A stretch of DNA of 64,000 nucleotides. It comes from Mobula hypostoma (taxonomy: Eukaryota). The stretch spans positions 89,778,001 to 89,842,000 of the forward strand of contig NC_086108.1 in the NCBI RefSeq assembly GCF_963921235.1, written 5' to 3'. Below the pieces are notes generated by a model. The model was given only the letters and a program-made list of their open reading frames with translations. It was not told where the DNA came from and searched no databases. The first letter of the stretch is position 1, and every line of letters begins with the position of its first letter. Positions 2,964-53,345 of the stretch are shown in pieces. The position numbers and the translations under genes are program-made.

Positions 2964-3001
2964 CAGTTGACGTTTCAGGCCGAGACCCTTCGTCAGGACT
3001 A
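2964..3001 (-). ncRNA. Hammerhead motif in the left pLTR (stem I mismatch)
   Basis: AGTC-CTGACGA-AGGGTCTCGGCCT-GAAA-CGTC^AACT; G>A at the first base after the cleavage site. Confidence 0.7.
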
Positions 3002-5403
3002 ACTGAAGGAAGAGTGAGTAAGGGATTTGAAAGTTGGAGGGGGAGGGGGAGATCCAAAATGATAGGAGAAGACAGGAGAGGGAGGGATAGAGCCAAGAGC
3101 TGGACAGGTGATAGGCAAAAGAGGACACGAGAGGATCATGGGACAGGAGGTCCGGGAAGAAAGACAAGCGGGGGGGACCTAGAGGATGGGCAAGAGGTAT
3201 ATTCAGAGGGACAGAGGGAGAAAAAGGAGAGTGATAGAAAGAATGTGTGCATAAAAATAAGTAACAGATGGGGTACGAGGGGGAGGTGGGACCTAGCGGA
3301 AGTTAGAGAAGTCGATGTTCATGCTATCAGGTTGGAGGCTACCCAGACAGAATATAAGGTGTTGTTCCTCCAGACTGAGTGTGGCTTCATCTTTACAGTA
3401 GGGGAGGCCGTGGATAGACATGTCAGAATGGGAATGGGATGTGGAATTAAAATGTGTGGCCACTGGGAGATCCTGCTTTCTCTGGTGGACAGAGCGTAGA
3501 TGTTCAGCAAAGCGGTCTCCCAGTCTGCGTCGGGTCTCGCCAATATATAAAAGGCCACATCGGGAGCACTGGACGCAGTATATCACCCCAGTCGACTCAC
3601 AGGTGAAGTGTTGCCTCACCTGGAAGGACTGTTTGGGGCCCTGAATGGTGGTAAGGGAGGAAGTGTAAGGGCATGTGTAGCACTTGTTCCGCTTACACGG
3701 ATAAGTGCCAGGAGGGAGATCAGTGGGGAGGGATGAGGGGGGACGAATGGACAAGGGAGTTGTGTAGGGAGCGATCCCTGCGGAATGCAGAGAGGGGGGG
3801 GAGGGAAAGATGTGCTTAGTGGTGGGATCCCGTTGGAGGTGGCGGAAGTTACGGAGAATAATATGTTGGACCCAGAGGCTGGTGGGGTGGTAGGTGAGGA
3901 CCCTATTCCTAGTAGGGTGGCGGGAGGATGGAGAGCAGATGTACGTGAAATGGGGGAGATGGGTTTAAGAGGAGAGTTGATAGTGGAGGAAGGGAAGCCC
4001 CTTTCTTTAAAAAAGGAAGACATCTCCCTCGTCCTAGAATGAAAAGCCTCATCCTGAGAGCAGATGCGGCGGAGACGGAGGAATTGTGAGAAGGGGATGG
4101 CATTTTTGCAAGAGACAGGGTGAGAAGAGGAATAGTCCAGATAGCTGTGAGAGTCAGTAGGCTTATAGTAGACATCAGTGGATAAGCTGTCTCCAGAGAC
4201 AGAGACAGAAAGATCTAGAAAGGGGAGGGAGGTGTCGGAAATGGACCAGGTAAACTTGAGGGCAGGGTGAAAGTTGGAGGCAAAGTTAATAAAGTCAACG
4301 AGTTCTGCATGCGTGCAGGAAGCAGCGCCAATGCAGTCGTCAATGTAGCGAAGGAAAAGTGGGGGACAGATACCAGAATAGGCACGGAACATAGATTGTT
4401 CTACAAACCCAACAAAAAGGCAGGCATAGCTAGGACCCATACGGGTGCCCATAGCTACACCTTTAGTTTGGAGGAAGTGGGAGGAGCCAAAGGAGAAATT
4501 ATTAAGAGTAAGGACTAATTCCGCTAGACGGAGCAGAGTGGTGGTAGAGGGGAACTGATTAGGACTGGACATCATTTAAGTTCCCTGGCCCCCACCGCTT
4601 TATTTTCACCATGGATGTCCAGTCCTTATATACTTCCATCCCCCATCAGGAAGGTCTTAAAGCTCTATGCTTCTTTTTGGATTCCAGACCTAATCAGTTC
4701 CCCTCTACCACCACTCTGCTCCGTCTAGCTACACATACCTTTACACTTCCTCCCTCACCACCATTCAGGGCCCCAAACAGTCCTTCCAGGTGAGGCAACA
4801 CTTCACCTGTGAGTCGACTGGGGTGATATACTGCGTCCGGTGTTCCCGATGTGGCCTTTTATATATTGGCGAGACCCGACGTATACTGGGAGACCGCTTT
4901 GCTGAACATCTACGCTCTGTCCGCCAGAGAAAGCAGGATCTCCCAGTGGCCACACATTTTAATTCCACATGCCATTCTGACATGTCTATCCACGGCCTCC
5001 TCTACTGTAAAGATGAAGCCACACTCAGGTTGGAGGAACAACACCTTATATTCTGTCTGGGTAGTCTCCAACCTGATGGCATGAACATCGACTTCTCTAA
5101 CTTCCGCTAGGCACCACCTCCCCCTCGTACCCCATCTGTTACTCATTTTTATGCACACATTCTTTCTCTCACTTTCCTTATTCTCCCTCTGTCCCTCTGA
5201 ATATACCTCTTGCCCATCCTCTGGGTCTCCCCCCCCCCCGTCTTTCTTCCTGGACCTCCTGTCCCATGATCCTCTCGTATCCCCTTTTGCCTATCACCTG
5301 TCCAGCTCTTGGCTCTATCCCTCCCCCTCCTGTCTTCTCCTATCATTTTGGATCTCCCCCTCCTCCTCCAACTTTCAAATTCCTTACTCACTCTTCCTTC
5401 AGT

Positions 5404-5441
5404 TAGTCCTGACGAAGGGTCTCGGCCTGAAACGTCGACTG
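5404..5441 (+). ncRNA. Minimal type I hammerhead ribozyme motif in Penelope pLTR (core intact)
   Basis: AGTC-CTGACGA-AGGGTCTCGGCCT-GAAA-CGTC^GACT: stem I AGTC/GACT, CUGANGA and GAAA boxes, stem II, palindromic ACGT stem III, GUC cleavage triplet. Confidence 0.85.
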
Positions 5442-6110
5442 CACCTCTTCCTACAGATGCTGCTTGGCCTGCTGCATTCACCAGCAACTTTGATGTGTGT
5501 TGCTTGAATTTCCAGCATCTGCAGAATTCCTGTTGTTTGCCTTTCAACATTCGGTAGGTTTCAATGAGAACCCCCCGCATTCATCTAAATTCTAGTGAGT
5601 ACAGGCCCAAAGCTGCCAAACACTCCTCATATGTTAACCCCTTCATTCCCAAAATAATCCTTGCGAATCTCCTTTGGACTCTCTCCAATGACATTACATC
5701 CTTTCTGAGTTAAGGGGCCCATAATTGTTGACAATGCTCCGTGCGGCCTGATTAGTGTCTTATAAAGCTTCAGCATTATCTCCTTGTTTTTATCTTCTAT
5801 TCCCTTTGAAATAAGTGCCAACGTTGCATTTGCCTTCTTTACCACAGACTCAACCTGTGAATTAACCTTCTGGGAGTCTTGCACAAGAACTCTCAAGTCC
5901 CTCTCAACTCTGATGCTTGAATTTTCTCCCCATTTAGATAATAGTCTGCACCATTGTTCCTTTTACCAAAATGGATTATCATACATTTTCCAATATCTCT
6001 TGAAAACCAAGGTTGCCTACACTTGTTGTCTTTACCTTTTGTTCTGACAGGCATATACATGCTTTGTATTCTCAAAATTTCACTTTTGAAGACCTCCCAC
6101 TTACCAAGTA

Positions 6111-11193: not shown

Positions 11194-11338
11194 CAACACA
11201 CACAAAATGCTGGAGGAACTCATCAAGCCAGGCAGCTATTGGGAGGAAAGCGTTAGATGCTGCCTGACTTGCTGAGTTCCTCCAGCATTTTGTCTGTGTT
11301 GCTCAAGATTTCCAGCATCTGCAGAATCTCTTGTGTTT
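11194..11338. mobile_element. Miniature fold-back Penelope pLTR insertion (no ribozyme core retained)
   Basis: CAACACACACAAAATGCTGGAGGAACTCA... and its inverted copy, followed by the tail ...CAGCATCTGCAGAATCTCTTGTGTTT. TSD ATGATCAGACAAGCAG at 11178-11193 and 11339-11354. Confidence 0.85.
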
Positions 11339-14240: not shown

Positions 14241-14321
14241 CTATCCGCTGTTTTTATTATTCTCATCCATCTTGATTTCAGTCTGTTGCATGGAAAGAAA
14301 AGACTCCCATGTAGCTAAACA
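14241..14321 (-). CDS. SNX7: SNX7 last coding exon (CLATWESFLSMQQTEIKMDENNKNSG*)
   Basis: Polypyrimidine tract plus TTTCAG acceptor; CLATWESFL is the SNX7 C-terminal motif; TAG stop at 14241-14243. Confidence 0.93.
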   Translation of the reverse strand, partial: CLATWESFLSMQQTEIKMDENNKNSG

Positions 14322-15209
14322 CTGAAAGACAAAAAAAAAGCCAATAGAAAATTGATAACCTCAAATATAGCTACTGCTAGTACAAAAAAAAATCCAAAAA
14401 GCGGGACATACTTTAGGTCCTTCAAAATCTGTGAAGAGATCCAGTAAGTTAATATTCCAAATGAGAATTATCAACATAACTGTATTTTTTTTCCTTTTCA
14501 GACCTACTAAATCAAGTATAATCAGTTTTTGAATTACACAGCTAAGAAAATGGCTTCAAAATGAGGAAAATAATGGTCAAGATCAGTGGTTGAACTTCTG
14601 AAGAGAAGGGCTAATCTGACCACTTTGCTCAAGTAAAGCAGCTCCATCACCAGAAAACAAATTATATCAATGTAATTGGCCTCTGATAATATACACCTAT
14701 TCCATTTAAGTTTACCCAAGATTACTAGTTACTGAAGGAAGAAAACAATTATTGTTTTCTTCTATAAATTTTTTTTGAGACTAGAGAATAGGTATGTAGA
14801 ATAGAAACATTGTGCAATTACTATTTTATAGAGTCATGAATTCAAATTCAGACAGCTCAAAAATGGGCCCTTCAACCAATATGTCCACAGTGATCATTTT
14901 GTCCAATACTAATCCCGCTACACCTGTATCCTTCCATACTTACCCATTCCAGAGCCTGTCAACATGCTCTAATGTAGTCATTGTATCTCCGCCTCCGCTG
15001 GAGAGTGCTCTCCTGACGTCAACCATTTTATGTGAAATAAACTTCCCCCACAGACTTCTTTCCAATATCCTGTCACTTTAAACATGTGCACTTCTTGTTC
15101 TTATTATCCCTCCCAGGGGAAAAATATTCTTGCTGTCTACCCTACAGCTCTCAATCATGTAAGCTTTCATCCCATCTTTTCCCGTCTTTCTCCCCATATC
15201 CAAAGATCT

Positions 15210-15643
15210 CAAATGGAATGAAAGGATTACCGTATGAGGAACATTTGGCAGCTCTTAGACTGTATTCCCTGAATTTCAGAATGAGGGGGGATCTCATAGA
15301 AATATTCCGAATGTTAGAAGGCCTGAACAGATTACAGTCCAAGACAAGAAGGCATGACTTCAGGATCGAAGGACATCCACTTAGAACAGAGATGCGGAGA
15401 AATTACTTTAGTCAGAGGGTGGTAAATCTGTGGAATTTGTTGCTATGAGCGGCTGTGGAGGCCAAGTCATTAGGTGCATTTAAGGCAGAGATAGATAGAT
15501 TCTTGATTAGCCAGGCCATCAAAGGCAGGGGAGAAGGCCGGGGAGTGGGGATGACTGTAAGAATTGGATCAGCCCATGAATGAATGGCGGAGCAGACTTG
15601 ATTGGCCAAATAGCCTACTTCTGCTCCTATATCTTATGGTCTA
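15210..15643 (+). mobile_element. CR1 3' fragment in the last SNX7 intron
   Basis: GMKGLPYEEHL...RGDLIEIF...FSQRVVNLWN, ending in CTTATGGTCT. Confidence 0.85.
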
Positions 15644-16723
15644 AATCCACGCATCTGGTGAATTTCCTCTGCATTTTCTTCAGCACAACCACACCCTTTC
15701 TATTGTTTGGTAAGCAGAGATGCATACAGTACTGAAAAACACTGATCAGACACACTTGGAAAGTCGCAACCAAAAATTCCAAGTTTTGTTTCAAGGGCCT
15801 GACCTACAAAGGGAGGTATGCTACGTGCCTTATTTATCACTCTGATCAAACAGTAGTAAGTGAATGCTATCCAATACCAGAGTTGCAAGGGACTCCACTT
15901 TCTCTATGTCAAATAGGTGTATGGAAGCAGCACTGTGTGGTATACTGTGCGTTCATAGCTGAATACTGACTGCGCACACAAGCCTTGAGATAAGTATGCA
16001 TATGATGAAAAAAGTAATTGATAGATGACATCTGAACTTGGATTCAGCAACTCTGTGTGATATTATTAAATATTGTAGAAAATGCATTTAGATCTTCCAC
16101 GTGGACGCCTGGTATTGTCATAGCTATCTATTTCCACTGCTTTGTCAGTTGGTTTGGGGAACCTCCTCCAGATAGTGGATGCACTTCACTTCCAAATCTA
16201 TATCTCCAGAGCAGTGAGGATAATTTAGCACTTGTCTGCTTTGCTCATTCTTTTATCTTTCCCAGGTTAGATTTCACTCACAGGCTCCGCTCAGACTGAG
16301 GTAAATGATCTATCATCATCTTAGACATCATCCATTATGAAAAATAACAAATTAATAGACAATATAATAACATTCGCTACTCAAAATTAAAAAGGGTGAT
16401 ATGTCAAATTTAAGCTTAGTTCAGTAAACTACAGCCCTTGTTTCAAATAGGCTGTAAGATTAAATAGGCTAAACACGAGAAAGGTGAAATGGCTTCAAAA
16501 TTCTGTAGAGAAAACTTAAAGAAAACTATGAAAGCAGTCTCAAAAAAAGGAAAATATAGTCCACAATCAATGCATTATTTAATATGTCCACCAAATGAAG
16601 CTTGATAACACTTTGCTACAAAGGATTGAAAAATTAAAACTTAATGGTTTGAAGTTTATTGATAACCTGATATGGTGGCAGCTAATCTTGTAGAGTTAAA
16701 TTTATTCAAGAAGCTTAAATATC

Positions 16724-17975
16724 AATCTGTTGGAGTTTTTCGAGGAGGTTACCAGGAAAGTGGATGAAGGGAAGGTAGTGGATATTGTCTACATGGACTT
16801 CAGTAAGGCCTTTGACAAGGTCCCGCATGGGAGGTTAGTTAGGAAAATTCAGTCGCTAGGTATACATGGAGAGGTGGTAAATTGGATTAGACATTGGCTC
16901 GATGGAAGAAGCCAGAGAGTGGTGGTAGAAAATTGCTTCTCTGAGTGGAGGCCTGTGACTAGTGGTGTGCCACAGGGATCAGTGCTGGGTCCGTTGTTAT
17001 TTATCATCTATATCAACGATCTGGATGATAATCTGGTAAATTGGATCAGCAAGTTTGCTGATGATACAAAGATTGGAGGTGTAGTAGACAGTGAGGAAGG
17101 TTTTCAGAGCCTGCAGAGGGACTTGGACCAGCTGGAAAAATGGGCTGAAAAATGGCAGATGGAGCTTAATACTGACAAGTGTGAGGTATTGCACGTTGGA
17201 AGGACAAACCAACGTAGAACATACAGGGTTAATGGTAAGGCACTGACGAGTGCAGTGGAACAGAGGGATCTGGGAATACAGATACAAAATTCCCTAAAAG
17301 TGTCGTCACAGGTAGATAAGGTTGTAAAGAGAGCTTTTGGTACATTGGCCTTTATTAATCGAAGTTTTGAGTATAAGAGCTGGAATGTTATGATGAGGTT
17401 GTATAAGGCATTGGTGAGGCCGAATCTGGAGTATTGTGTTCAGTTTTGGTCACCAAATTACAGGAAGGATATAAATAAGGTTGAAAGAGTGCAGAGAAGG
17501 TTTACAAGGATGCTGCCGGGACTTGAGAAACTCAGTTACAGAGAAAGGTTGAATAGGTTAGGACTTTATTCCCTGAGCGTAGAAGAATGAGGGGAGATTT
17601 GATAGAGGTATATAAAATTATGATGGGTATAGATAGAGTGAATGCAAGCAGGCTTTTTCCACTGAGGCAAGGGGAGAAAAAAACCAGAGGACATGGGTTA
17701 AGGGTGAGGGGGGAAAAGTTTAAAGGGAACATTAGGGGGGGCTTCTTCACACAGAGAGTGGTGGGAGTATGGAATGAGCTGCCAGACGAGGTGGTAAATG
17801 CGGGTTCTTTTTTAACATTTAAGAATAAATTGGACAGATACATGGATGGGAGGTGTATGGAGGGATATGGTCCGTGTGCAGGTCAGTAGGACTAGGCAGA
17901 AAATGGTTCGGCACAGCCAAGAAGGGCCAAAGGGCCTGTTTTCTGTGCTGTAGTTTCTATGGTCCTATGGTTCTA
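16724..17975 (+). mobile_element. Young 5'-truncated CR1 LINE with near-intact RT
   Basis: ORF 16730..17590 (MDFSKAFDKVPH, SGVPQGSVLGP, KFADD) joins ORF 17587..17889 by one frameshift. TTCTATGG-type tail; possible TSD TATCAA at 16720-16725 and 17974-17979. Confidence 0.95.
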
Positions 17976-33872: not shown

Positions 33873-33949
33873 TAAATGTGTCAATTTGGCATTTGATTTA
33901 GAAACTCGTCATCTTTCCATTCACCATTGATTTAAAAAAACCCAGACAG

Positions 33950-38824: not shown

Positions 38825-39155
38825 AGAAGATGTTGCCTATAGTGGGCCAGTCTTGGGACCAGAGGATGCAGCCTCAGAGGAGAGGGACATCCATTTAGAA
38901 CAGAGATGAAGAGGAATTTCTTTTGACAGAGGGTAGAGATTCAATGGAAGTTATTGCCATAGAGAGTTGCGGAGGCAAGTATTAATTATATAAAGTGGAG
39001 GTTGATAGGTTCTTGATTAGTCAGAGCGTCAAAGGTTACAGGGAGAAGGCGGGAGAATGGAATTGAGAGGAATAATAAATTAGCCATGATGGAATGGCAC
39101 AGCAGACTTGATAGGCCAAATGGTCTAATTATGCTGCTACATCTTAAGGTTTTAT
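38825..39155 (+). mobile_element. CR1 3' fragment
   Basis: Similar to 15340-15643 and 60690-61017. Confidence 0.75.
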
Positions 39156-39364
39156 AGCAGTGAGCCAAATGCAATGACTTCAGAAAAACACTCCACTCAG
39201 AAAACAAAAGGGGATAAAATAAGTTAATATTTCAATAAGAGGGCAATAAATGATTAGGAACACATACAAAATGCTTGTGTAACTCAGCAAGTCAAGGTAG
39301 CGTCATGGAGAGCTGAAGTTTCGTGTTGAGACCCTTCACCAGTTCTGGAAAGGAAAGGGGCACC

Positions 39365-40400
39365 TAGATCTTATACTTCCTGACCAACAAACTGCAATCA
39401 GTAAGGATGGGCAGCAACACATCCACTGTGATTATTTTCAGCATTGGTGCCCCACAACACTGTGTTCTCAGCTCCCTATACATTCATGACTTTGTGGCCA
39501 AATTCTGCTCTAACTCCATCTACAGTTTGCAGATGGTACCACCACAGTGGACTGTATTTCAAATAATGAGTCAATAGCATAGGTAAAAGACAGAGAGAAA
39601 GTGACATGGTGTCATAGAAACCACTTTTCCTTCAAAGTCAGCAAAACAAGAGTTGGTCATTGACTTCAGGAAGGGGGCATTACAAATGCTCCAGTCTATA
39701 TCAATATTACTGAGGCTGAGAGCTTCAACTTCCTCGGAATGATTACCAATTAGTGCCCTAGACCATGTCGTCACCCATGGCCAAGGATGTTAATCAGCAT
39801 CACGACCTCCTCAGGAGACTAAAGGAACTTAGCACATCCCCTCTGACATTCACCAATTTGTAATCAATGCACCATAGAAAGCATTCTGTTTGGTTGCATC
39901 ACAGTTTGGTATGGCAAATGCTCTGTCCATGACCACAATAAACTGTGAAGAGTTGTGGACACAACTCAACACAATCAGAGAAACTAGCATATCTTCCATG
40001 AACTCTGTCTACACTTCTCATTGCCTTAGAAAAGCAACCAGCAATCAAAGAATCCAACAACCCTGGATATTCCCTCTTCTCCCCCTCTCATTAGGCAGAA
40101 GATACAAGCACCTGAAAACACAGCACCAGGTTCAAGGACAGCTTCTTATAACAAGATCCTGCTGTTATGAGACTATCAAATGGTTTCCTAGTATGATAGA
40201 AATGGAGTGTTGACCCCAATCTTTGTTGTGACCTTGTACCTTATTGTAAATCCCCACTGCCTTTCTCTGTCACTGTCATACTTTATTCTGCTGTTTTCAT
40301 TTGAATTACCTCAATGCACTGTTGTAATGAATTGCTCTGTATAAATGATATGCAAGATTTTCACTGTACCTTGACACCTGTGACAATAATAAATCAATTT
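39365..40400 (+). mobile_element. Degraded Rex1/Babar-type LINE 3' half
   Basis: GGTGCCCCACAA...TGTGTTCTCAGC and TTTGCAGATG RT remnants, ACCATAGAAAGCATTCTG, tail GTGACAATAATAAA. Confidence 0.65.
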
Positions 40401-40707
40401 ACACCCAAGACCTGTGGATTGATAATTTAATTGTCCATTGAAACTGCATCTGATACATAGCAGGTCAGTGTAATTTAAGGGGAGTTAATGGGAATGGGAG
40501 AAGAACAAAAGTGGTATTAGTGTAAATGGGTGCTTGATAGTTCATTTGGGCTGATCATGCAAAAATGTAACGTGCATGGAAAAGTACGTAGCCAACCTGA
40601 TCTATGCAGGTGATTATGTCATACTAACAAGGAGGAAGTATTAAATTTTTGTGATATATTTAACTTAATTTTCTTCGTTTAATTTCCAGAAAAGACAATG
40701 AACTTAC

Positions 40708-40906
40708 CTTTCAATTCCTTTACAATTCTTTGGTTGATTCTATCCAATCTTCCTATTTTCTGATGGAAAGTGTCAGCATACTCATTCATTGCAGTGAATT
40801 CATCAGGTCTATTCTTAACACTCTTAACTGAGCTGGCAACAGCCCGAAATGTTTCTTCCATTTTACTGATGAATGCTGAACCAATCTTCTTTTGAGGGGC
40901 CAGGTC
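40708..40906 (-). CDS. SNX7: SNX7 exon 5 (DLAPQKKIGSAFISKMEETFRAVASSVKSVKNRPDEF...RIVKELK), linker and BAR start
   Basis: 199 nt within ORF 40679..40966. T-rich tract plus TGCAG acceptor, G|GTAAGT donor, ends in phase 1. Confidence 0.93.
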
Positions 40907-41769
40907 CTGCATTAAAAAAAATAAAAACAATTGAACAAACCAACAGGAAATAATTATATACTCCATACATAGAGAATAAATAAAGCAACAGAAAAATTAA
41001 GGGCACCGGAATCAGGTAGGATATTAAACTATAATGAAATCATTTTACCATTTTTGACCATGCAGAAGAACTTTGGCCTTAGAGTAATGTGTTTTGTTTT
41101 ACTCCCTCAGATGACAACTGTGGCATTTGAAAGGATCAACAGAAAGGAAGGCCAGAAATGAATTCTACTTAATACATCTAAGTTACTGAAATAGGTCCAA
41201 AGGAGAAAATCCAGGCAGAATTCTGAAGTGTTCCTGTACCCACAGTTGTGCATGTGGAAGACAGGTACACTGATTATATAGTGAACTCTGACTTCCAAAT
41301 ACCTTCTATGAAAGCAGAAACAATTCCCGAGTATGGCAGAATCACTTGGGATGAAAGTGGCAGAGTGTATTTCTAAACAGCATTGTCGCGATTTTCTGAA
41401 CTATTTAAGAATTCACAGGGATCAGAAAAATTTCCAAGTTTTAGATTCATTTTCTAGGTTGTGTTGTTGGTATAACTGGACATCTTACTAACCCAAAAAC
41501 TATTAACATTTCATTGAAGAGAAATTCATTGCAGAAGAGAAGTTTATGAATTCCAAACAGACCTCAAAAATAAACCAATGATTTTTAGAAACAATTGCAT
41601 TTGGTAGGTTATAATTCAAATATATGTCAAAATACACTATGAAAAAGTGCCCTTAACTGCACATTATTTATAATAACTGATAAAAATCTACATCCGTAAA
41701 TAAATCTGTTGAAGCACACAGGACAGTTCCCAGTTTTGTTATTATAATGGATAACTGAATAGATTTTAC

Positions 41770-41934
41770 ACCTGCCTGAACAGTTAGAAATAATTTGAAG
41801 TCTTCATTAAAAGACAGTGTAGGATGGTCAGCAATTCTGTTTAAAAATTTATGTAGTGCCTTCCGGCGCATTTCTATGAAATCTTCATTAAATCGTTCCA
41901 CTATCCCCCTTACTGCAAATTTCTCTGGCAACGT
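41770..41934 (-). CDS. SNX7: SNX7 exon 4 ([55 protein letters not shown])
   Basis: 165 nt within ORF 41668..41931. ACGTAG acceptor; the donor GGT|GTAAAA is required to keep phase 0 with the next exon. Confidence 0.93.
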
Positions 41935-43421
41935 CTACGTAAAAAGAGAAAATTAAAAATGGTTAGATTAGCGTAACAGTACCCAACAAAAATAAATTGC
42001 TACACCGTAAGGGTCCTATTTTAACACTTAATTCCATACTAATATAATAATTTCGAGGCAAACCTTACAGCTAAAAGCACCTTCTGTAAATGATTTTAAT
42101 TTATGGAAATGACTGCTATCTTAATAATAAAAAGAGCTGAAGTACAGTATATTTACTACAGAAAAGCTCTAAAATTAATAACTGGACATTCTTTTATTCA
42201 TTTTATATTTGCAATGATCTCAAATCCAATTTCAAATAGCATACTGATAATGACTGCCAAGGCACAAATGAATGATGGCCGCTTTCACCCATTGAACCAT
42301 TCTCTATAAACCACAACCAGCTAATTCTATGCCCTGAAAGTGAGAATTCGGGTACATTTTCTGAAAAGCTATCTGCCATACACATGCCAATAGATTTTTA
42401 TCATTATTATTATTATTATTATAGCAATCATGATCATGAAATGAGCAAACTCCAAGAATAACCAAAGGGTTATGCTTGATTGAAAGGCATAAAAATTGTA
42501 CAATTATACTTTTCATAGTTAAGAACTGTTATTTGTGATGGATTCCACCACAGTAAGGAGTGCAAATGACACATGACTCAAACAGTGAAGCAACTAGAGT
42601 AGAAATAAAGTTCATGCTCTACACAATAAAACTGACATGCTAAGCACTTTTTCTAACAACAAACCTGCTGGGCACTTCCATTGATGACAACTGTGGTATT
42701 AAGCTGGCTTTCCACTTCAGAATTCCTGCTTGTATTCAAGTATCACAAAACATTTCAATGTCAAAAAGATAAATACAGAGCAAATATGCAAAGAGCCTTA
42801 TACTTCTGACAAAACAGAACAAGGATTAAGGACCATGCTCCAAAAACTGCACATTCTATAATTTTTATTCTCGCACATTTTATTATCAAAAACCAAAAGC
42901 TCAACAGACAATTCTATTGTGCACAGACATAATAATCCACAAAATATTCTATATTTATCTGCTGCAGAAAACATGAAATGTAATGCTAATGCAGAAATAT
43001 CAAAATTAATATAGCAACCAAGGCTCCGTGTACTTCAGAGCTATGAGAAAAGTAATGCTCTGGAGAAATTGTGTGCATCTCTACTTACTTAGTGCTTTAT
43101 TGGTTCCATGACCATATGCCAAAGAATTTGTATAGATCAAATCTGACACCAGAGATTTAATTCTAGGACATAACCATAACAAAGCAGATCTACTGTAAAT
43201 ATGGAAGTGACCCCGTGGACCTGATTGAAGAAACTAGGCTGTTAAATCAATCCGATTGCTCTCATGTTCAAGAATACACATAGCTCAACTAGGATAGACA
43301 AAAGATAAACCATACCAACATGTGATCAAAGATGAGATTTTAATATCAAGGAAATATTTAGGAAGACATTTAAATATAGACTTAAATACAGCAGAAAAGT
43401 TCTCAAAAATGATTCACTTAC

Positions 43422-43532
43422 AGGAAGAATCAAAGTAGAATGTGCTTGCTCAAGTTGGTCTTTTAGCCAAAAGAAATCTTGATAACGTCTACGAACTTCA
43501 TACTCACTGGAGTCAAATTCACTGCGTGTAGT
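43422..43532 (-). CDS. SNX7: SNX7 exon 3 (TTRSEFDSSEYEVRRRYQDFFWLKDQLEQAHSTLILP), PX domain
   Basis: 111 nt, TTTATAG acceptor and GTAAGT donor. Contains the PX RRYxDF motif. Translated by hand; too short for the ORF track. Confidence 0.95.
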
Positions 43533-45349
43533 CTATAAACAAACAGGGTTAAATACATAGAGCATCAGTACAGGTCATCTTGAAGCAGTAAAATACAAAC
43601 ACTATACATTGTAGAATATAATTGTTAGGTGACATAACGGATATCCACATTTGCTTTTGTTTTAACAGCTGCATCTATTATGAAGGGACAGTCATGGTTT
43701 ACGATAATAACATCATGCCTATCAAAATGCCAAGCACCCAAATATGAATGATAAATTAGGAAATTCCATTAAAATTGCTTTAGCTTAGAACTGTACTGAC
43801 TCAAATTTGTTATACTGTACATTTCATTTTAGATACATGATATATAATACATGACTAGGATTCTTGTTAATACTAATGAGATAATGTCTACTGGTGTCAT
43901 TAAATTAATGAACCAGATGAAGAGTAAGATAAAATTTAAGGATGTGGACCAATCTCACTCAGAACCTTAAGAATAGGAAAATAAATGATTCACACCAGGT
44001 GCATTTTTTTAAGGATAAATGGTGGAACTGACTTCCTAAAAGTGACGGCAATAAATGCAAACATTTATTGACATTCTCTGCCTTGGCATAGATACTCCAT
44101 TCATTCAACATGCTAATAGAATCAAGGAAGATGGCAATAGTGCTGAAGTGGATGACCAACCAAAATCTTCATGAACTGGCTGGCCCATTCCTGTTGTTTT
44201 TGTAGGTTGTACCCATTATAGAGAAGAGTTTAAAGTATCCTGTAAAATGTAATGTAAATTAAGCATGTGCATGGAATTCAGTATGAATTCCAGTTGGGAT
44301 TTAAGATACTAAGATAAATACCATGTTGGAGGATAAGATTTTAAGGTGGATAGATGCTTAGTTAACAGGAAACTGAAAGTAAACATTAATGAATTTATTT
44401 TCTGGTTGACAAGATTTAATGAAGGGTATGTGTGTGGTGTCAGTATTGGCAGAATTAAAGGTATTTGCTGATTACAACGTTTGTAGCCTTTTTATATATT
44501 CACAACTTATTTTCTACCAAATATATGGATAGGTTAAACTGGCCAAAAAAAAAAGTAAAATTGCCCATCTTGGCAGAAAATTTAAAATACATTATTCTAA
44601 TGGCGAGAGATTGCTGAGCCTAGAAATGGAACAAGACCTGTGCCCCTACTACTTAATTTGTAAAAGGTTAGTGTCCAGGCAAAACAATTAAGAAAGCTAA
44701 CAATATAGTTATTTATTGCTAGAGGAAATGAACAGATATATTCAATTGTACAAAGCATTAGTGAGATTACTTATACTTATTAGTTTCCCTCAGTAAAGGG
44801 ATACCATCTTTGCTGCATCTACCATGTTAAGGCCTTTAAAATTTTCAGTGAGAACTCTTCTAATTCTTTTCAACTCTTTGGAATGCAGATCGAGTCTATT
44901 CATTCTTTGCTCATGTGTGGCTAGTACCTAGCTAAAGAATCTTCATTACGGTGCCTCTACTGGAATTATATCCTTCCTTAACTAAGAGGCCAAACTGTGC
45001 ACAATACTATATCACAACAAGGACCTATAAAGATGTCTCATTTGAGGGCTTTACTCCTGTAATCAGACCCGCAAACAATCTATGACAGCCAATCTGTGCA
45101 TATGTGCTTTATCTTACAACTAGATTCCGAAGAGACCAAGCTTTTCTTCTCACTTTCTCTCTGCAAAGCAGATATTAAGAAATCACTTCTGGGTGATTCC
45201 AGAAAATCCTACTACTTCCAGGAGCACCTTGGGAACAGTGACCTTGAGCAGTGCAGCTCAGTGGATACGATTAAATACTCCTGGTTCCTCCTGATAAAGC
45301 TGAGAAGTACATCTGCTTCCAAGGTCTGTACAAGTAACAAAAATGTCTT

Positions 45350-48153
45350 TATGCAACTGAACAATGTATTGCTATTTAAAACCGACAGAAACAATGTCGA
45401 ATGTGGCCATATTCCTCATCAGAATCCTCGGAGAAAACGTGGCTGCCGATCAGGGATACAGGTGCGTTTTCAACTTGAATACTGACTACCTTACTAAGAA
45501 ACATACAGTCTCCAGTAAATAAAATTGAAGACCTCAGAGCTAGGGTGTGCTGTATCAGAGGGACTTGTGTCCTTTGTTTCACAGAATCCTGGTTAACCAC
45601 TTCTATACCAAACACAACAATTCAGATTCACATGTTTACTATACACCATCAGGATAAGACAGTCGAGTCTCTCGAAAGCAGAGGTGGAGGTATATGCCTC
45701 AAGATGAACTCGTCTTGGTGCACTAATATATCAGAGACACCCCACTTCTGCTCACCAGACCTGGAACATCTCGCAATTAAGTACCGCCTATTTTACCTGC
45801 CGCGGGAGATTTCTATGATCATTTTGGTAGCGGTGTTCATTCCACCTCAGGCCAATGTCATACAGGCTCTGGATGATCTAAGCAATAGGATCAACATGCA
45901 CGAAGCAGCACAACCTGACGCCTTCACCATCGATTTTGGAGGGGGGGTTACCCAGTCCAGTTTGAAAAGGTCACTAAATAATTACTATCAACAAATCACT
46001 TGTAGTACCAGAGGGAACAACACACTGGACTGCTACACTAAGATTAACAGTGCTTACCATGCTATTTCATGCCCACATTTCGCAAAGTCTGATATCCTGG
46101 CTGTAGTACTACTCTCCGAGTACAGGCAGAGACTGAAAACCGCCGCATCAGTAGTGAGGAACAAGGAGGTATGGACAAGGGAAGTACTGGTGCGCTTACA
46201 GGACTGCTTTGAATCGGTGAACTGGACTGTGTTCGGGAATTCATCTTCAAATCTGGATGAGTATGCCACAGTTACTACCAACTTCATTAAAATCTGTGTG
46301 GATGAGTATTTGCCTACGAAATCTTGCTGTACATTCCCAAACCAAAAGCTGTGGATGAACAAGGAAGTTCGTCATCTGCTGAGGGCTAGATCTGTGGCAC
46401 TTAAGTCTGGTGACCCAGGTCTACACAAGAAAAACAGGTATGACTCGGAAGGCTATTTCAACAGCGAGGAAGCAATACCAAGTGAGGTTGGAGGTGACAT
46501 CGGATGCACGGTAGGGTTTGCAGGCCATTACTTTCTATAAAGCTAAACCCATTAGCATGAATGGCAGAGATGCTTCCCTACCAGATGAGTTGAATGCCTT
46601 CTAAGCCCACTTTGAAAGAGAAAAAATAACTACAGCTCCGAAGATCCCTGCTGTTCCCAGTGACCCTGTGATCTCTATCTCGGAGGCCGATGTCAGGCTG
46701 TCTTTAAGGAGGATAAACCCTCGCAAGGCGGGAGGTCTCGATGGAGTACCTGGTAAGGCTTCAAAATCTTGTGCCAACCAACTGGCAGGAGTATTCAAGC
46801 ATATTTTCAACTGCTAACTGCTACGGTCAGAAGTTCCCACCTGGTTCAAAAAGACAACAATTATCCCAGTACCTTAACGACCATCGCTCAGTAGCACTCA
46901 TATCTATGGTGATGAAATGATTTGAGAGGTTGGTCATGGCTAGAATTAACTCTTGCCTCAGCAAGGACCTGGATCCACTGCAATTTGCCTACTGCTACAA
47001 TACAAACACCTATGTCAGGATGCTGGTCATAGCTAGTGTTTAACACAATCATTCTCACAGTCCTAACTGATAAACTACAGAACCTGGGCTTCTGTGCCAC
47101 CCTCTGCAATTGGATCCTCAACTTCCTAACCAGAAGACCACAATCTGTGCAGATTGCTGATATCTCCTCGCTGACTCTAGCACACCTCAGGGGGGTGTGC
47201 TTAGCCAACTGCTCTCCTCCCTCTATACCCATAACTGTGTGGCTCGGTATAGCTTAAATACCATCACTAAATTTGCCGATGATACAACCATTGCTGGTAG
47301 GATCTCAGCTGAAGATGAGAAAGCGTACAGGAACTAATACTAGTGTACCAGCTAGTTGAGCGGTGTCGCAGCAACAACCTTGTATTCAATGACAGCAAGA
47401 CAAAAGAGCTGACTGTAGACTTCATGGAAGGTAAAACGACAGAACATGAACTAATTCTCAGAGCGATCAGGAGTGCAGTGAGTGAGCAATTTCAGGATCC
47501 TGGGTATCAAGATCTCTGAGGATCTAATATGGTTCCAACAAATTGATGCAGCCATACAGAAATCAAGACAGAGGCTATACCTCATTAGGAGTTTGTGGAG
47601 ATTTGGTTTGTCAACTAAAACATTTGAAAACTTCTATAGATGTAACTTGGAGCATTCTGACAGGCTGCATCACTGTCTGATATGGGGGTGGGGGGATACA
47701 GCACAGGACTGAAAGAAGCTACAGGAAGTTGTAAAGTGAATCAGCTCCATCTTGAGTACTAGCCTCAGCAGTATCCAAGACATCTTCAAGGAGTGGTGCC
47801 TGAGAAAGGCAGCATCCATTATTAAAGACCTCCATTACGCAGGACATGCCCCTTTCTCATTGTTAACGTCAGGAAGGAAGTACAGAAACCTGAAAGCACA
47901 CACTCAACGATTGAGGACAGCTTCTTCCCCTCTGCCACATGATTCCTAAATGGATATTGAACCCATGAACACTACCTCACTATTTAAAAAAATATATTAT
48001 TTCATTTTGTACTATTTTTAATATACATATATACTTAATGAAATTGATTAACTTACTTACTTTTTCATTTCTATATTATCATGTATTGCATTATACTGCT
48101 GCTAAGTTAAGAAATTTCATGACACATGCAGGTGATAATAAATCTGATTCTGA
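45350..48153 (+). mobile_element. Near full-length but degraded Rex1/Babar LINE
   Basis: PRRKRGCRSG N-terminal motif; endonuclease ORF 45545..46540 (LCFTESWL, RGGGICL, TRGNNTLD); RT remnants (LDPLQFAY, KFADDT); tail AATAAATCTGATTCTGAT. Confidence 0.88.
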
Positions 48154-48697
48154 TCAAATTGAAATTTATTGTCATTTCAACTGCATACATGTATACTGCC
48201 AAATGAAACAAGATTTCTCCAGATTAAGGTGCACAACACAGTATGCGTAACTCACACAACCCAAAGTAATATTACAAATAAATTAATAATAGATGTATTT
48301 ACATCACAAGTTAAGAAGTGAACAGTATAATACTACTGGCGCTTCATATGTGGTGAAAAGTAGTACTCTCACACCTCTTCATTAAGAACTCAGACATTTA
48401 TCAATCGCGTATCCTTTCAGAATTCAATTATCAACACATTTTGCACATTGTCAACAACCCTAAGCTCTCAAACTGATAAATGCAAAAACTTGTATCCATT
48501 TGTTGTTTTTTTTTTAATTACAGCTCTAAATTGCTGATCCTTTTTTTTGGACCAAAGCCCAATCCCAGACCTGAGATACATCACCTCAGAGTCTACCCTG
48601 AGAAACGCTATCAGTATTTCTATGCTTCAATATGACCGCTCATTCTTCCAAACTCTAAAAAGCTCTAGACACAACCTGTTTAATCTCTCCACCAGGA

Positions 48698-49608
48698 CAG
48701 GAGTGGCAAGCCTATGACACCCACAAAAAATTTTGTTGGCACACAGCAGGCTGTACTGCCTCTCGATCCTTTCGCCCTTAAAATTATGTAATGATTATGT
48801 TTACTACCAAATGAAGCAGCAAATGATTCTTTAAAACAACCCAAGAGCAGTGAGATGTTTTCACAGGAAGTACCTCATGCTGGCTTATCAACAGCTAGAC
48901 AGTTGCAATAACACATAACATTAGATGGTATGTTGTGAAATCCTCAGTGCTGGCATACAGCATCGGTATTTTGATAGAAAACAGTCGGGCCAGTTGGCAT
49001 TGGCTTCACTCTGCTTATACTTTTTCTTGTTGTTTGTGAGTGAACACTGGATATTCAGTGATAATAACAGTAAATACCGTATGCAGTAGAGCTCCTCTAT
49101 GAATATTCACGTCAGTCATTGTTTTCAGTGATGAACTTGGTCAAGTCTAATTATAGGAGTAGACTTACCAATGAAATGCGCATTACTCTCATTCAAACAC
49201 AAGCCAGATACAAAATATTTGTCATCGTTAGTGCAACAACATCACTAAGAGCAAAGTGTTTATTTACCTTACCCTGATCTTTCATAAATATGCACCAAAC
49301 ATTGATATTTCAAATATTATGAGGTACATTAAGATACTATTTATGTAATGATGTTACCTTCAATTGGCTTTTCAAAAGATTAATAACCTTCTTTGGACAG
49401 GATTTCTAAAATGCTTCATTTATTTCAATGTCTGTTACACATAAATAAGTAACAGGACTCAACCTTTTCTTTCATAAGTTCATAATTATTGTTACTAATT
49501 TATTAATTAATGATAATCTCTGTTCAAAATTACGAAGGCCGTAAGAGAATGTTTCAGAAAGTCATTGCCAATTAGGACACCCACTTTCAAAAAAGGTCGG
49601 CACTCCTG
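48698..49608. mobile_element. Non-autonomous hAT-like DNA transposon
   Basis: Ends CAGGAGTGGCAAGCCT and AGGTCGGCACTCCTG form an imperfect TIR. The 8-bp flanks CACCAGGA and TCCCAGGA match at 6 of 8 positions. Confidence 0.6.
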
Positions 49609-51132
49609 TCCCAGGATAATCAACAAACATTTCATTCCATCCCAGGAAACAAACTGGTGAACCTTCACTGAAATCATTTTATTATGTATACTCTTAATTT
49701 CAACTGCAGGCCCTTTATTACTGTTTTTCTAGATCTCTGTACAAGAATCTAATTATGAATTGAGTAGCACAATCTAGGTGACTCAGATGAATTTAATATT
49801 TCTCAAACAATCCTTCAATTCAAAATGATTAATATAATCCGTAATTTGTTACAATGAAGATTCTCAGAATATTCTTGCACTTGTTACCCAAGTAATCTAG
49901 ACTAATAAAAAAATCATCCTCAGCACCTCCATTCACTCCGTCATTAAGGCTGAAATTTGAACTTTGAAACTGTATTTGGAAGTTGTTGATAGTCACTGTT
50001 TCTTGAACAGCTAGAGTCCATGAACATATTGCTATGCTCTAAATTCCATTACAGGCTGACTCATTACTCCAGCATCTAGATCAACAGCACCAGATTACCT
50101 CATCTTTATTCAGCAATAGAAAATTAAACTATTTGCATTTATCTTCATTCTTCCAACTTATTCCCATTTTTGATCAAAATTTCTAGTTGGCATATCTCAA
50201 TGACAGCTTTTTATTTTGTCTACTTTGCCTACTGTTTTGACAGTTCTATCCTATAAATTAGGGGGGAAAAAAATCAATATTAAAATTCCATTGTTTTACT
50301 CAACCAGATTGCACAATTCATTTTTATTCCACAATCAGATTCTGAAAATAAATTTCAATTGCAGATTTTCACTATAAAGGCAATGCTCTGGGTTGCTCAG
50401 GACAAATTGGCCAAAAATTTAAATCATAAATACTCTCCCCATTTTGATATGCAACAAAATCATTTACCTAGATTAACTATTTTATTTGGCAATTCTTTCC
50501 CAGAGTTTGATTTCAGTATTTGCACAACACCTTACTAGCAATTTTCAAACTATTTTAATATTTACATGTAACAGCTTTTAATTGCTTTCAGAAGTCTCAA
50601 CTGTAATGCAGTTGGTTCATGTTCTTTATCAAGCGGAAAATATCTACTTTTGAGAATACAGAATTTTCATGATGATTCGGTATCAGTGGCGTAGATTAAG
50701 TGGACAGCTAGAGACTTTTGCCTAGGGCAGAAATGGCTCATATAAGAGGCCATAATTTTAAGGTGATTGGAAGAAAGTATAGGGGAATGTCAGATGCAAG
50801 TTCTTCACACAGAGGTGAGTGTGCAGAATGCCCTGCCAGCAGTGGTGGTAGTAGCAGATACATTAGGGGCATTTAAGAAACTCTTAGATAGGCACATGAA
50901 TTATAGAAAAATAGAGGGCTACATAGGAGGGAAGAGTTCGACTGATCATGGCGTAGGCTGATCGCACAACATTGTGGGCCAAAGACCTGTAGTGTTCTAT
51001 AATGATTTATATTCTATATTTCCAAAACAGTAGGAGTTACTGCGCATCTTTTCAGGTCCTGACATAAGGCATTTTTCAAAGTTTGTCAACCTTCAGTAGA
51101 AATAATTAAAACTTAAGTTTTACTCACATAAA

Positions 51133-51695
51133 GTATTGTGTGCAGTTTTGGTCCCCTAATCTGAGGAAAGACATCTTTGCCATAGAGGGAGTACAAAGAA
51201 GGTTCACCAGATTGATTCCTGGGATGGCAGGTCTTTCATATGAAGAAAGACTGGATGAACTGGGCTTGTACTCGTTGGAATTTAGAAGATTGAGGGGGGA
51301 TCTGATTGAAACGTATAAGATCCTAAAGGGATTGGACAGGCTAGATGCAGGAAGATTGTTCCCGATGTTGGGGAGGTCTAGAACGAGGGGTCACAGTTTG
51401 AGGATAGAGGGGAAGCCTTTTAGGACCGAGGTTAGGAAAAACTTCTTCACACAGAGAGTGGTGAATCTGTGGAATTCTCTGCCACAGCAAACTGTTGAGG
51501 CCAGTTCATTAGCTATGTTTAAAAGGAAGTTAGATATGGCCCTTGTGGCTACAGGGGTCAGGGGGTATGGAGGGAAGGCTGGGTTCTGAGTTGGATGATC
51601 AGCCATGATCATAATAAATGGCGGTGCAGGCTCGAAGGGCCGAATGGCCTACTCCTGCACCTATTTTCTATGTTTCTATGTTTCTATGTTTCTAT
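51133..51695 (+). mobile_element. Young CR1 3' fragment
   Basis: Uninterrupted ORF 51140..51589 (QFWSPNLRKDI...FFTQRVVNLWNSLP); (TTTCTATG)n tail. Confidence 0.93.
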
Positions 51696-51761
51696 AAACT
51701 TGCAATGATAATTGTACACATTTTCATTTAGCCAAAGTTCAAAGTAAAGTTATTATCAAAG

Positions 51762-51770
<9 letters not shown>

Positions 51771-51804
<34 letters not shown>
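51771..51804. repeat. (CA)n microsatellite
   Basis: Directly visible run of about 17 CA units. Confidence 0.95.
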
Positions 51805-51807
<3 letters not shown>

Positions 51808-53120
51808 GTGCCTAAGATTTCTGCACTGTTCTTTAGTAATTTTATGTATTGCAGTATAATTGTGGACTGAGAGTAAGAAGGAGGTAGGGAGAGGGGATCA
51901 TGGTTGGAAAAAGGGAAAGGCGGGGGGGGGATAGGAAGCATCAGAGAGACATTCTGTAATGAACAATAAACCAAATGTTTGAAATCAAATGACCTTGCCC
52001 TGTGTCTCAGGACTAGGTATGTCTGCATCCACACCATCTTGGCAAATCTTCCTTTGCCACCTGTCCCATACCCCTCCTGCACTCCACCCTCACCATTCCC
52101 AACATCCTTGGATCTCCCTGATTTACAAATTTGCTCTCCACTCCATGTTGACAAACATAGTACTGTGTAAAAGTCTCAGGCACCTTAGCTATATATATAT
52201 ATATGCGCCCAAGACTTTTGCACAGGATTGTACATGTCACCACACACAACCCTGAGATTCACTTTCTTGAGGGCATACTCAGTAAATCCACAAAACATTA
52301 CAGAATCACTGAAAAACTGCACCCATCGGGTGGACAAGCAACCAATGGGCAAAAGACAAGTCGTGCAAGTACAAAAGAGAAAAAAATCATGAATAAGCAA
52401 TAAATATCAAGAACATGAGATGAAGAGTCCTTGAAAGTGAATCTATAGGTTGTGGGAACAGTTCATTGATGGAGCAAGTGCAGTTATTTATTTATTTTAG
52501 ATACAGCGTGGACAGGCCCTTCTGACCTTCCAAACCGCGCCATGCAGCAACCCCCTATTTAACCCACGCCTAATCATGGGACAAGTTACAATGACCAATT
52601 ATCCTACCACCCGGTATAGAATGATGTTATCCCTACTGGTTCACAGTCCTGAGGCTCCTGTACCTTCTCTCTGAGCAGCGAAAAGACAGCATGGCCTGGA
52701 TGGTGGAGGTATATGCTCAACCTGGTAAAAATTTGTTCTTTAGGTTCTAATTTCAAATTCGCCCTCACAAGGCATCTGAAAACCCTGACTGCTTACTAAT
52801 AACCAAAAATAAAACATCAGGTGCTTTTGGATATGGGAGAGATCAGATACACCAGAGTAAAAGCAATGCACAAACTCCATACAAACAGAACAAAGCAGTA
52901 CTTAGGACAGGAACTGAATGGAAGAACCTGAGCCAGTGACTCTGTTAGCTGCACTTCTAATTCCTGAGCAGCCATAAGTTACTGCAGATGAAACCAGCAA
53001 GTCTTTAACCAAACGCTTAAAGAATTTGATAGTAGCCATATCAGAAGTAACTGTACCCCTTCCTAACATTATTATTTATTCTAAAGACGTTATTGCCTCA
53101 AATCAGATACTGATTTCTAT

Positions 53121-53345
53121 CAAAGTTGCTGGTGAACGCAGCAGGCCAAGCAGCATCTATAGGAAGAGGCGCAGTCGACGTTTCAGGCCGAGACCCTTCG
53201 TCAGGACTAACGGTCAGGACGAAGGGTCTCGGCCTGAAACGTCGACTGCGCCTCTTCCTATAGATGCTGCTTGGCCTGCTGCGTTCACCAGCAACTTTGA
53301 TGTATGTTGCTTGAATTTCCAGCATCTGCAGAATTCCTGTTGTTT
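53121..53345. mobile_element. Miniature fold-back Penelope pLTR insertion in SNX7 intron 2
   Basis: Perfect 84-bp inverted repeat (53119-53202 and 53218-53301) plus tail. TSD TACTGATTTCTAT at 53108-53120 and 53345-53357. Confidence 0.93.
53172..53209 (-). ncRNA. Intact minimal hammerhead motif, sense to the SNX7 pre-mRNA
   Basis: Minus strand reads TAGTC-CTGACGA-AGGGTCTCGGCCT-GAAA-CGTC^GACTG; predicted cut between 53177 and 53176. Confidence 0.85.

Follow-up and report, generated by a model that had tools for sequence, protein, structure and literature searches.

The hammerhead motifs scattered over this part of the genome of the ray Mobula hypostoma are, very probably, minimal hammerheads of type I, carried in the terminal repeat of a Penelope-like retrotransposon that is very abundant and encodes a reverse transcriptase (RT) and a GIY-YIG endonuclease (EN); within this reading, the short units are likely dead-on-arrival copies of the 3' end, and the ribozymes are likely inert for the host. 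The anatomy of the motif, its link to RT and EN frames, target-site duplications (TSDs), head-to-head arms, two preferred 3' ends and the placement of copies in introns of SNX7 are read directly from the window, by which we mean the whole analysed stretch of 64,000 nucleotides (Table 1). A hammerhead at the end of a Penelope-like element is an arrangement already known, and the family may already be listed in the supplements of PMC4209133 (consensus families per species) or of a 2026 preprint (chondrichthyan families). A literature search with most subscription journals outside its coverage found no work on Penelope elements in Mobula or on truncation breakpoints at Penelope-like hammerheads.

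Motif inventory, anatomy and decay

All six motifs of the original prediction are present where it placed them, at 5404-5441 and 36646-36683 on the plus strand and at 2964-3001, 29233-29267, 35964-36001 and 53172-53209 on the minus strand, and its three decayed traces (19323-19360, 23056-23093 and that from 39310) were confirmed, all on the minus strand. A tenth copy, unnoticed earlier, lies at 53211-53248(+) with C3 and U4 altered at an inversion junction, and an additional decayed half copy starts at 57094(+). The strict pattern of helix I 5' strand, core, helix II and GAAACGT has three exact matches in the window against 0.00 expected, a number reached by none of 100 shuffles.

The motif has a CUGANGA plus GAAA core with a UH cleavage site, a short helix I that closes both ends, a helix II with an extra base after A9, and a palindromic 15.2-16.2 (ACGU) without loop III in 7 of the 10 copies. 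The minimal hammerheads of metazoan Penelope-like elements, including Xena, Poseidon and Neptune of fish, are likewise of type I, without loop III, palindromic at 15.2-16.2, with an extra nucleotide between 9 and 10.1 and a short helix I; they are also mostly single motifs from truncated elements, with opposite-strand pairs that lie 100-700 bp apart (Cervera and de la Pena 2014, PMC4209133). Together with the RT and EN frames described below, this anatomy bears out the proposed identity, minimal Penelope hammerheads of type I in which stem III is ACGU. In contrast to the published examples, helix II has 4 bp instead of 7-8, the young subfamily carries G.U for G10.1-C11.1 (among 8 distinct rows, G-C in four and G.U in three), and the density of 10 motifs in 64 kb compares with genome totals of about 4,000 in coelacanth and 9,000 in Xenopus.

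Only two of the ten copies, 5404+ and 53172-, are fully intact in core, palindromic stem III and both helices, and four keep the core with ACGU-C. Copies 2964- and 29233- keep the core and have lost the pair adjoining the cleavage site (1.1-2.1, broken in 2964- by CpG decay), 35964- has G12>A, 36646+ a non-palindromic stem III, and 19323-, 23056- and 39310- show core changes. This decay is CpG-biased: CpG transitions make up 21 of the 45 differences among nine motifs, at 10 of 38 columns.

Helix pairing holds in 83% of 72 cells versus 17-39% in a slid alignment. The original prediction had been tied to conservation or covariation of the stems relative to the flanking repeat, and the first of these stood, with 74-84% motif identity between subfamilies versus 55-58% for the upstream repeat; the second did not, as none of nine pairs is altered on both sides in the 8 distinct rows, which are few and closely related. 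The proposed Rfam check did not return the motif either, none of the seven matches (E up to 1) being to a hammerhead model. The best two of these matches, to miRNA models, are artefacts of the palindrome 53168-53252, with scores under the gathering threshold. Beyond the window, a metagenome scan gave one locus (L001), whose hammerhead-like motif shares the helix II type but has unrelated flanks and is not part of this element; viral contigs gave no match in one scan and in a second a single chance match in coding DNA (L002), and prokaryote genomes gave no motif matches.

The parent element

RT and EN frames lie directly upstream of the motifs, and the hammerheads sit in the element's terminal repeat. 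The frames are partial and frameshifted in the window, where no full-length copy is present, and their order, RT followed by a C-terminal GIY-YIG domain, is that of EN+ Penelope-like elements. Relatives of the RT frame are about 890-955 aa long and carry RVT_1 and GIY-YIG. The EN frame aligns with the C-terminus of P0010 at 40% identity over 215 aa (E=3e-43), and its GIY-YIG Pfam match (E=0.0012) is below the curated cut-off. The C-x4-C-x2-C linker between RT and EN fits the CX2-5CxxC pattern common to Neptune and Nematis (Craig et al. 2021, PMC8557442). Judged by its sequence, the element is an RT plus GIY-YIG Penelope-like element of a ray, with a linker of Neptune type. It shares with the canonical elements of that paper 5' truncation, an inverted 5' copy and a tail at one end, and differs in the length of the tail, about 46 nt in the young subfamily versus 30-40 nt there.

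The very high abundance that had been proposed is borne out, since in run X1 235,615 of 29,819,287 contigs fall on a 971-nt stretch of the element at at least 85% identity, which is not a copy number. In the raw-read run X21, none of 10,085,944 reads aligned. In runs X13 and X15, whose RNA label is a guess, there was no A>G excess (13 and 10 places versus 13 in DNA).

Table 1. Features of the window (TSD, target-site duplication; reference, position in the direct arm of insertion A).
Feature	Coordinates	Strand	Evidence
Insertion A, head-to-head Penelope-like inside CR1 fragment	2914..5539	.	13-bp TSD 2901-2913 / 5540-5552
Minimal hammerhead	2964..3001	-	core intact; pair 1.1-2.1 broken by CpG decay
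Linker with C-x4-C-x2-C and C-terminal GIY-YIG endonuclease frame	3293..3964	-	Pfam and P0010 matches
Partial Penelope-type reverse transcriptase frame	3616..4575	-	73% and 69% identity to Chiloscyllium punctatum proteins P0002, P0003
Minimal hammerhead, reference copy	5404..5441	+	fully intact
Sequence 3' of hammerhead	5442..5539	+	copies end near 5491-5504 or near 5526-5539
Insertion B, 145-bp palindromic mini-insertion without hammerhead core	11194..11338	.	16-bp TSD 11178-11193 / 11339-11354
SNX7 (sorting nexin 7)	14244..56586	-	PX-domain matches; PDB SNX7 match; tblastn of Mobula hypostoma P0123
Old interrupted element in SNX7 intron	19256..23172	-	sequence alignment to element; no convincing TSD
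Insertion D, solitary 132-bp unit, sense in SNX7 intron	29136..29267	-	12-bp TSD, 1 mismatch, 29124-29135 / 29268-29279
Insertion E, head-to-head, second subfamily, inside CR1 fragment	35873..36735	.	14-bp TSD 35859-35872 / 36736-36749
Decayed hammerhead-bearing end, older subfamily	39256..39347	-	sequence alignment
Insertion G, 224-bp palindrome in SNX7 intron	53121..53344	.	13-bp TSD 53108-53120 / 53345-53357
Old fragment starting inside helix II (reference 5422)	57094..57168	+	sequence alignment

Insertions and their 3' ends

The six motifs represent four insertions, not six independent events, each flanked by a TSD of 12-14 bp. Altogether, TSDs of 12-16 bp were found at 5 of 9 boundary pairs tested, versus 2 of 300 random pairs reaching 12; a sixth repeat near the 23 kb unit (13 nt, one mismatch) was left out of the count because it does not adjoin the ends of that unit, and for the copies at 19-23, 39 and 57 kb, all of them old, no convincing TSD was found.

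Reference positions are those of the direct (+) arm of insertion A, which bears the 5404-5441 copy and a tail and has an internal deletion of about 840 nt; the long inverted arm comprises RT, EN and terminal repeat without tail, and the arms are 94.8% identical over 772 nt. The deletion is unlikely to mark a deleted family, as contig depth dips at 4707-4739 and in X1, X13 and X15 the loose ends ahead of 4742 run on into ordinary linker sequence. Insertion E carries the 35964- and 36646+ hammerheads, one in each orientation, and in insertion G both arms start at the hammerhead 5' edge, with 53172- intact and 53211+ altered. The arms of insertion B align from reference 5448 and 5455. Unit D begins inside helix I at reference 5406, with core intact and helix I broken, and is identical to the reference end at 127 of 132 positions. 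The old interrupted element consists of a hammerhead-tail unit (23056-23093), an RT piece (22193-22983), about 2 kb of other sequence, and then EN, terminal repeat and a decayed hammerhead (19323-19360).

Inverted arms stop at reference 5491-5504 and their partner arms at 5525-5539, and these two alternative ends define a tail of about 35-46 nt; loose contig ends lie behind 5538 (27 contigs, X15) and 5540 (50 contigs, X13). Insertions A, B, E and G show direct or inverted pseudo-LTRs with the tail at one end, a signature described in PMC8557442 and PMC11167929. The Anolis Poseidon element PAc (Frangieh et al. 2024, PMC11167929) likewise ends at two alternative positions downstream of the hammerhead, in agreement with two internal priming sites, and extension from both target strands as described for it would explain the head-to-head arms; PAc differs in that its ORF begins within stem II, the start of the ray element's ORF being outside the window. 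By analogy with the biochemistry in PMC11167929, the Penelope protein would nick both target strands and reverse transcription would be primed at two internal sites about 40 nt apart, so that one cDNA would yield a solitary unit and two cDNAs joined by their 3' ends a palindrome with the tail on one arm only.

Short units

Units of roughly 130-225 bp had been proposed to spread the motif as a non-coding family. Such units do exist (132, 145 and 224 bp, all TSD-flanked), and over 88 nt the young pair matches the end of the long element at 94-97% identity. As a spreading family they did not hold up: the three units have three layouts, one of them lacks the hammerhead, and none of the five tandem arrays in the window (period up to 500) contains the motif. 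It is quite improbable that they form a SINE-like or retrozyme-like non-autonomous family, itself transcribed and re-inserted by the Penelope protein. Three of them in 64 kb, a common start near reference 5402-5411 and the derivation of non-LTR retrozymes from Penelope terminal repeats proposed in bioRxiv 10.64898/2026.07.22.740005 speak for such a family, as does a step in summed contig depth from bin 5367-5399 to bin 5400-5432 (3.6-fold in X1, 5.4-fold in X13, 5.1-fold in X15), although such a step would equally arise from other subfamilies, whose match is confined to the conserved motif. Against it stand the differing layouts and arrays, and private changes shared against the long element are not evident by eye. 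Non-LTR retrozymes (same preprint; PMC7229834) are also short non-coding hammerhead units related to Penelope terminal repeats, and are reported from one chondrichthyan as well, but their defining feature is an array of direct tandem repeats, each unit bearing a hammerhead, while the units here are solitary or inverted. Truncated one-off copies thus remain the more likely reading.

5' ends at the hammerhead edge

The 5' ends are unevenly spread: three arms of two young insertions begin at reference 5402-5411, and 20 contigs of run X15 have dissimilar, AT-rich sequence ahead of 5406. Such clustering is not what plain random truncation would give, and it counts against our main explanation. Short cDNAs would stop in or near the hammerhead; a start of the template RNA at that point or drop-off of the reverse transcriptase is the most plausible cause. 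Snap-back of the cDNA at the motif was rejected as a cause, the cDNA hairpin having only -2.8 kcal/mol (z 0.35).

Of the 7 copies with upstream sequence, 6 have an initiator-like motif (BBCABW) located 4-9 nt ahead of C3, and the start of the young mini-insertions beside it may reflect a discrete RNA 5' end. More specifically, and rather doubtfully, the 5' edge of the hammerhead would be the start of the element RNA, and cDNAs primed internally at the first tail copy would run off there to give a discrete class of hammerhead-headed micro-copies of 90-135 nt. If so, units from about 5402-5406 would record uncleaved RNA and units from 5437 cleaved RNA, and the genomic ends, in their hundreds of thousands, would preserve a fossil measure of how frequently the Penelope hammerhead cuts in the germ line.

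Somewhat better placed, though still on the unlikely side, is chance combined with short microhomology, an 8-nt quasi-palindrome (5406-5413) annealing two cDNA ends: the window holds only two independent events, the junction of insertion G repeats the quasi-palindrome, and other arms begin at 5422, 5448, 5455 or far upstream, but the solitary unit D also begins at 5406, as do the 20 X15 contigs. There is only a slight chance that a spliceosomal intron ends at helix I and that the mini-units stem from spliced RNA. In Drosophila virilis Penelope an intron does end at the 5' end of helix I (PMC4209133), all 7 copies keeping upstream sequence show a pyrimidine run plus CAG no more than 4 nt from the edge of helix I, and 2 of 4 copies have a GTAAT donor-like site at the ORF stop. 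Yet the whole repeat is 79-81% pyrimidine and the AG belongs to helix I, the 15 joints listed (487 others) include no GT..AG joint leading onto the motif, unit D abuts its TSD without a leader, and loose ends before 5406 agree only 0.4. PMC8557442 and PMC11167929 leave the in vivo role of the Penelope hammerhead as an open question. Dated insertions are very numerous in this genome, and a purely computational survey of their 5' ends could test cleavage and RNA starts.

Folding, self-cleavage and SNX7

Nine coding exons of SNX7 were placed (residues 37-465), the first exon not being located. The expected intronic position was found for four of the six motifs, three of them in sense. Among all hammerhead-bearing copies inside the SNX7 span, six of nine are in sense, so that no depletion of sense copies is visible in this small number. 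That introns are thereby seeded with usable cleavage sites was not upheld: one of the six sense intronic copies, 53172-, is intact, and in the nascent SNX7 strand it is predicted to pair with its antisense arm. Both intact copies lie in inverted arms.

In a lone motif, GACG is predicted to pair with CGUC of the same core (probability 0.98-0.99), giving an inactive rod, and the double-hammerhead fold is predicted at -11.5 kcal/mol versus -22.0 for two monomers. Insertion G folds at -201 kcal/mol over 266 nt, with a probability of 0.0 for helices I and II; in a head-to-head insertion the antisense arm would be transcribed first on either strand and capture the sense motif. These calculations covered single motifs, dimers and insertion G and are indicative only, because ViennaRNA ignores hammerhead tertiary contacts and proteins.

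On these predictions, self-cleavage of the intronic copies is unlikely. With 8 of 10 copies mutated, and a hairpin predicted to trap the only intact SNX7 copy, the motifs are probably inert remnants. It is very hard to credit that sense copies cleave SNX7 pre-mRNA, by long-range dimers or in trans, and so affect host expression. Six sense copies do lie in introns, with 53172- intact and the core of 29233- kept, and protein-aided cleavage by a Penelope hammerhead is shown in PMC11167929; but the intact copy is predicted to be fully paired, and a sense partner whose core is intact lies no closer than 24 kb. Published results point the same way, with no monomer cleavage and low dimer cleavage (PMC4209133), no RNA-seq ends at the cleavage site (PMC11167929) and cleavage by one of nine Xenopus dimers (bioRxiv 10.64898/2026.07.22.740005); dimer cleavage was also treated by Lunse et al., as cited in PMC6765202. 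The ribozyme of our element would be functional only as a dimer in the parent's tandem RNA, probably with protein help. CpG decay, the self-paired monomer and an inverted layout predicted to silence both strands would explain how a huge intronic load of motifs can be tolerated. Back-jump joints in run X1 (among the joints listed, 5495 to 5409 and 5442 to 5406) may represent short direct tandems elsewhere in such genomes, able to form dimers.

Hammerhead motifs and their decay

All six hammerhead motifs of the original prediction lie where it had placed them, and its three decayed traces are real, each a minus-strand copy; searching with a profile of the element's end brought up two others, one at 53211-53248(+) and a half copy that begins at 57094(+). 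The motif consists, in order, of helix I (5 bp), CUGACGA, a single extra base, helix II (4 bp, closed by a 4-nt loop), GAA, ACGU, C17 and the 3' strand of helix I, and a strict pattern gave three exact matches in the window versus 0.00 expected (100 shuffles). An Rfam 15 search of the window returned no hammerhead match. The motif is real and correctly named, and it belongs to an already described class, notable here for abundance. Penelope pieces make up ~9.5% of the window, and at least half of the element's words occurred in 15 of the 24 sequencing runs listed. A 971-nt element stretch matched 235,615 of 29,819,287 contigs in X1 (possibly the window's own sample), 15,845 of 1,736,423 in X13 and 10,416 of 1,264,532 in X15, which are not copy numbers.

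Only two of ten motif copies are fully intact (5404+, 53172-); two more keep the core and have lost the pair adjacent to the cleavage site, and in six the core or stem III is altered. CpG transitions account for 21 of 45 differences among nine aligned motifs, CpG columns for 10 of 38, an excess that fits neutral decay after insertion. In eight distinct motif rows, few and closely related, none of nine helix pairs was altered on both sides. Between subfamilies the motif is 74-84% identical versus 55-58% for the repeat upstream, and this higher conservation points to selection on active parent elements. An unrelated metagenome locus (L001:1-50) carries a hammerhead-like motif, cut by the contig end, in which helix II is similar, helix I differs and stem III is an 8-nt palindrome.

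Carrier element and insertions

We take the element to be probably a Neptune, judging by host range rather than by a tree. The nearest named relatives of its reverse transcriptase (RT) are bamboo shark proteins (73% and 69% identity); full-length relatives of about 890-955 aa contain both RVT_1 and GIY-YIG, and the window's endonuclease frame is 40% identical to them over 215 aa. The linker carries C-x4-C-x2-C, a type that PMC8557442 gives as a mark of Neptune and Nematis.

Penelope features of the window (TSD, target-site duplication)
Feature	Position	Strand or layout	TSD	Remark
RT frames	3616-4575, 22204-22983	-		upstream of motifs
GIY-YIG frames	3293-3964 (-), 4694-5110 (+)			upstream of motifs
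Insertion A	2914-5539	head-to-head	13 bp	
Insertion B	11194-11338	head-to-head	16 bp	
Insertion D	29136-29267		12 bp	
Insertion E	35873-36735	head-to-head	14 bp	
Insertion G	53121-53344	head-to-head	13 bp	

Since the insertions are TSD-bounded (12 bp was reached by 2 of 300 random boundary pairs), the six predicted motifs represent four events; four further boundary pairs tested in old copies lacked a convincing TSD. Each of A, B, E and G has an arm that ends near reference 5491-5504 (window positions in the direct arm of A) and a partner that ends near 5525-5539, the arrangement of inverted copy plus tail on a single side that PMC8557442 describes for Penelope-like elements. For the Anolis element, PMC11167929 places the tail between two internal priming sites and has the protein extending both target strands. 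The palindromic insertions probably arose when two cDNAs were joined 3' end to 3' end.

A spreading miniature family, as had been proposed, finds no support in the tests made on the window: the short units (132, 145 and 224 bp) have three different layouts, and over 88 nt D matches the long element at 94% identity and G at 97%. None of the window's five tandem arrays contains the motif, so that the units, unlike non-LTR retrozymes, lack the arrays by which retrozymes are defined.

Within the element, the sequence 3' of the motif (5442-5540) begins at a conserved YAG-ATG and holds a stem kept across subfamilies (cDNA fold -17.1 kcal/mol, z -2.4), a candidate protein-binding or priming element. 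The direct arm of A begins near RT motif A and then jumps ~840 nt to the endonuclease linker (4575-4730), a deletion that public contigs suggest is uncommon. At 22980-23172 the hammerhead-tail unit of one subfamily directly abuts the RT of an element whose own end (19256-19360) resembles a different subfamily; either one copy inserted into an earlier one here, or the two form a chimeric tandem.

The 5' edge at the hammerhead

The arms of young units start at the motif, D at reference 5406 and G at 5402 and 5406 or 5411; older arms begin at 5422, 5448, 5455 or far upstream. In X15, at least 20 contigs among the loose ends listed have unlike, AT-rich sequence ahead of 5406, with an agreement of 0.4. 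At the bin holding the motif's 5' end, contig depth is 3.6- to 5.4-fold higher than in the bin before it, an increase to which diverged subfamilies contribute by matching in this part alone. BBCABW, which we take to be an initiator consensus, lies 4-9 nt before C3 in six of seven copies with upstream sequence (background 0.017 per position; the copies are related). The letters also form a CAG resembling a splice acceptor and contribute to helix I. For D. virilis Penelope, PMC2377424 and PMC4209133 describe an internal promoter as well as an intron whose end falls at helix I; among 15 joints listed from contigs, none was a splice joint onto the motif. cDNA snap-back as the cause of the edge was unsupported by a fold test. 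We prefer a discrete RNA start, and our literature search found nothing on a 5' edge at the Penelope hammerhead. The fuller scenario, in which RNA starts at this edge, internal priming runs off to yield hammerhead-headed micro-copies of 90-135 nt and genomic ends record cleavage, we consider rather unlikely.

Host gene and intronic motifs

Outside self-repeats, a scan of the 277 stop-free frames gave two PX matches, both of which also matched SNX7. Mobula hypostoma SNX7 maps to nine minus-strand exons (56586 to 14244), 93-100% identical where cleanly aligned, which marks the host as a close relative of that ray. Its introns hold four of the six predicted motifs, three in sense, and six of nine copies within its span are in sense; motifs 2964 and 5404 lie 9-11 kb past the stop codon. 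The suggested seeding of introns with cleavage sites holds for placement, but usable cleavage finds no support in the tests made: in the nascent strand, the sole intact copy in the SNX7 span (53172-) comes a few bases after its antisense arm, with which it is predicted to pair fully (helix probabilities 0.0), and the same prediction holds for both E motifs. By geometry, any head-to-head insertion has its antisense arm transcribed first, whichever strand is read. In a lone motif, stem III is predicted to pair with the core (probability 0.98-0.99), and folding two motifs as a double hammerhead scores 10.5 kcal/mol worse than leaving them as monomers, all in a model without tertiary contacts or proteins. 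Published cleavage tests agree in direction: minimal hammerhead monomers were inactive and dimers of low activity (PMC4209133), the Anolis hammerhead cleaved only when protein was present and showed no RNA ends at its cleavage position (PMC11167929), and dimers were active in 1 of 9 cases in a 2026 preprint (bioRxiv 10.64898/2026.07.22.740005).

Across introns, 53218-53344(+) and 29136-29262(-) are 95% complementary over 127 nt and flank six SNX7 exons, a pair that could favor back-splicing or editing. A weak intronic Pfam NAD4L match (42801-43034(-), E=0.0014, under cut-off) is probably chance.

Other repeats

CR1-type endonuclease and RT fragments lie at 21665-22057 and 16700-17590, and insertions A and E each sit within a CR1 fragment of their own location. 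Tc1/mariner-type copies at 6108-7713 and 29783-31378, identified by DDE_3 and HTH_Tnp_Tc3_2 matches, are 95-99% identical in opposite orientation, one in an SNX7 intron and the other beyond the stop codon. A Pogo/Tc5-like DNA-binding frame lies at 32900-33304, and a 353-aa frame without Pfam match (45479-46540) looks LINE-endonuclease-like by eye.
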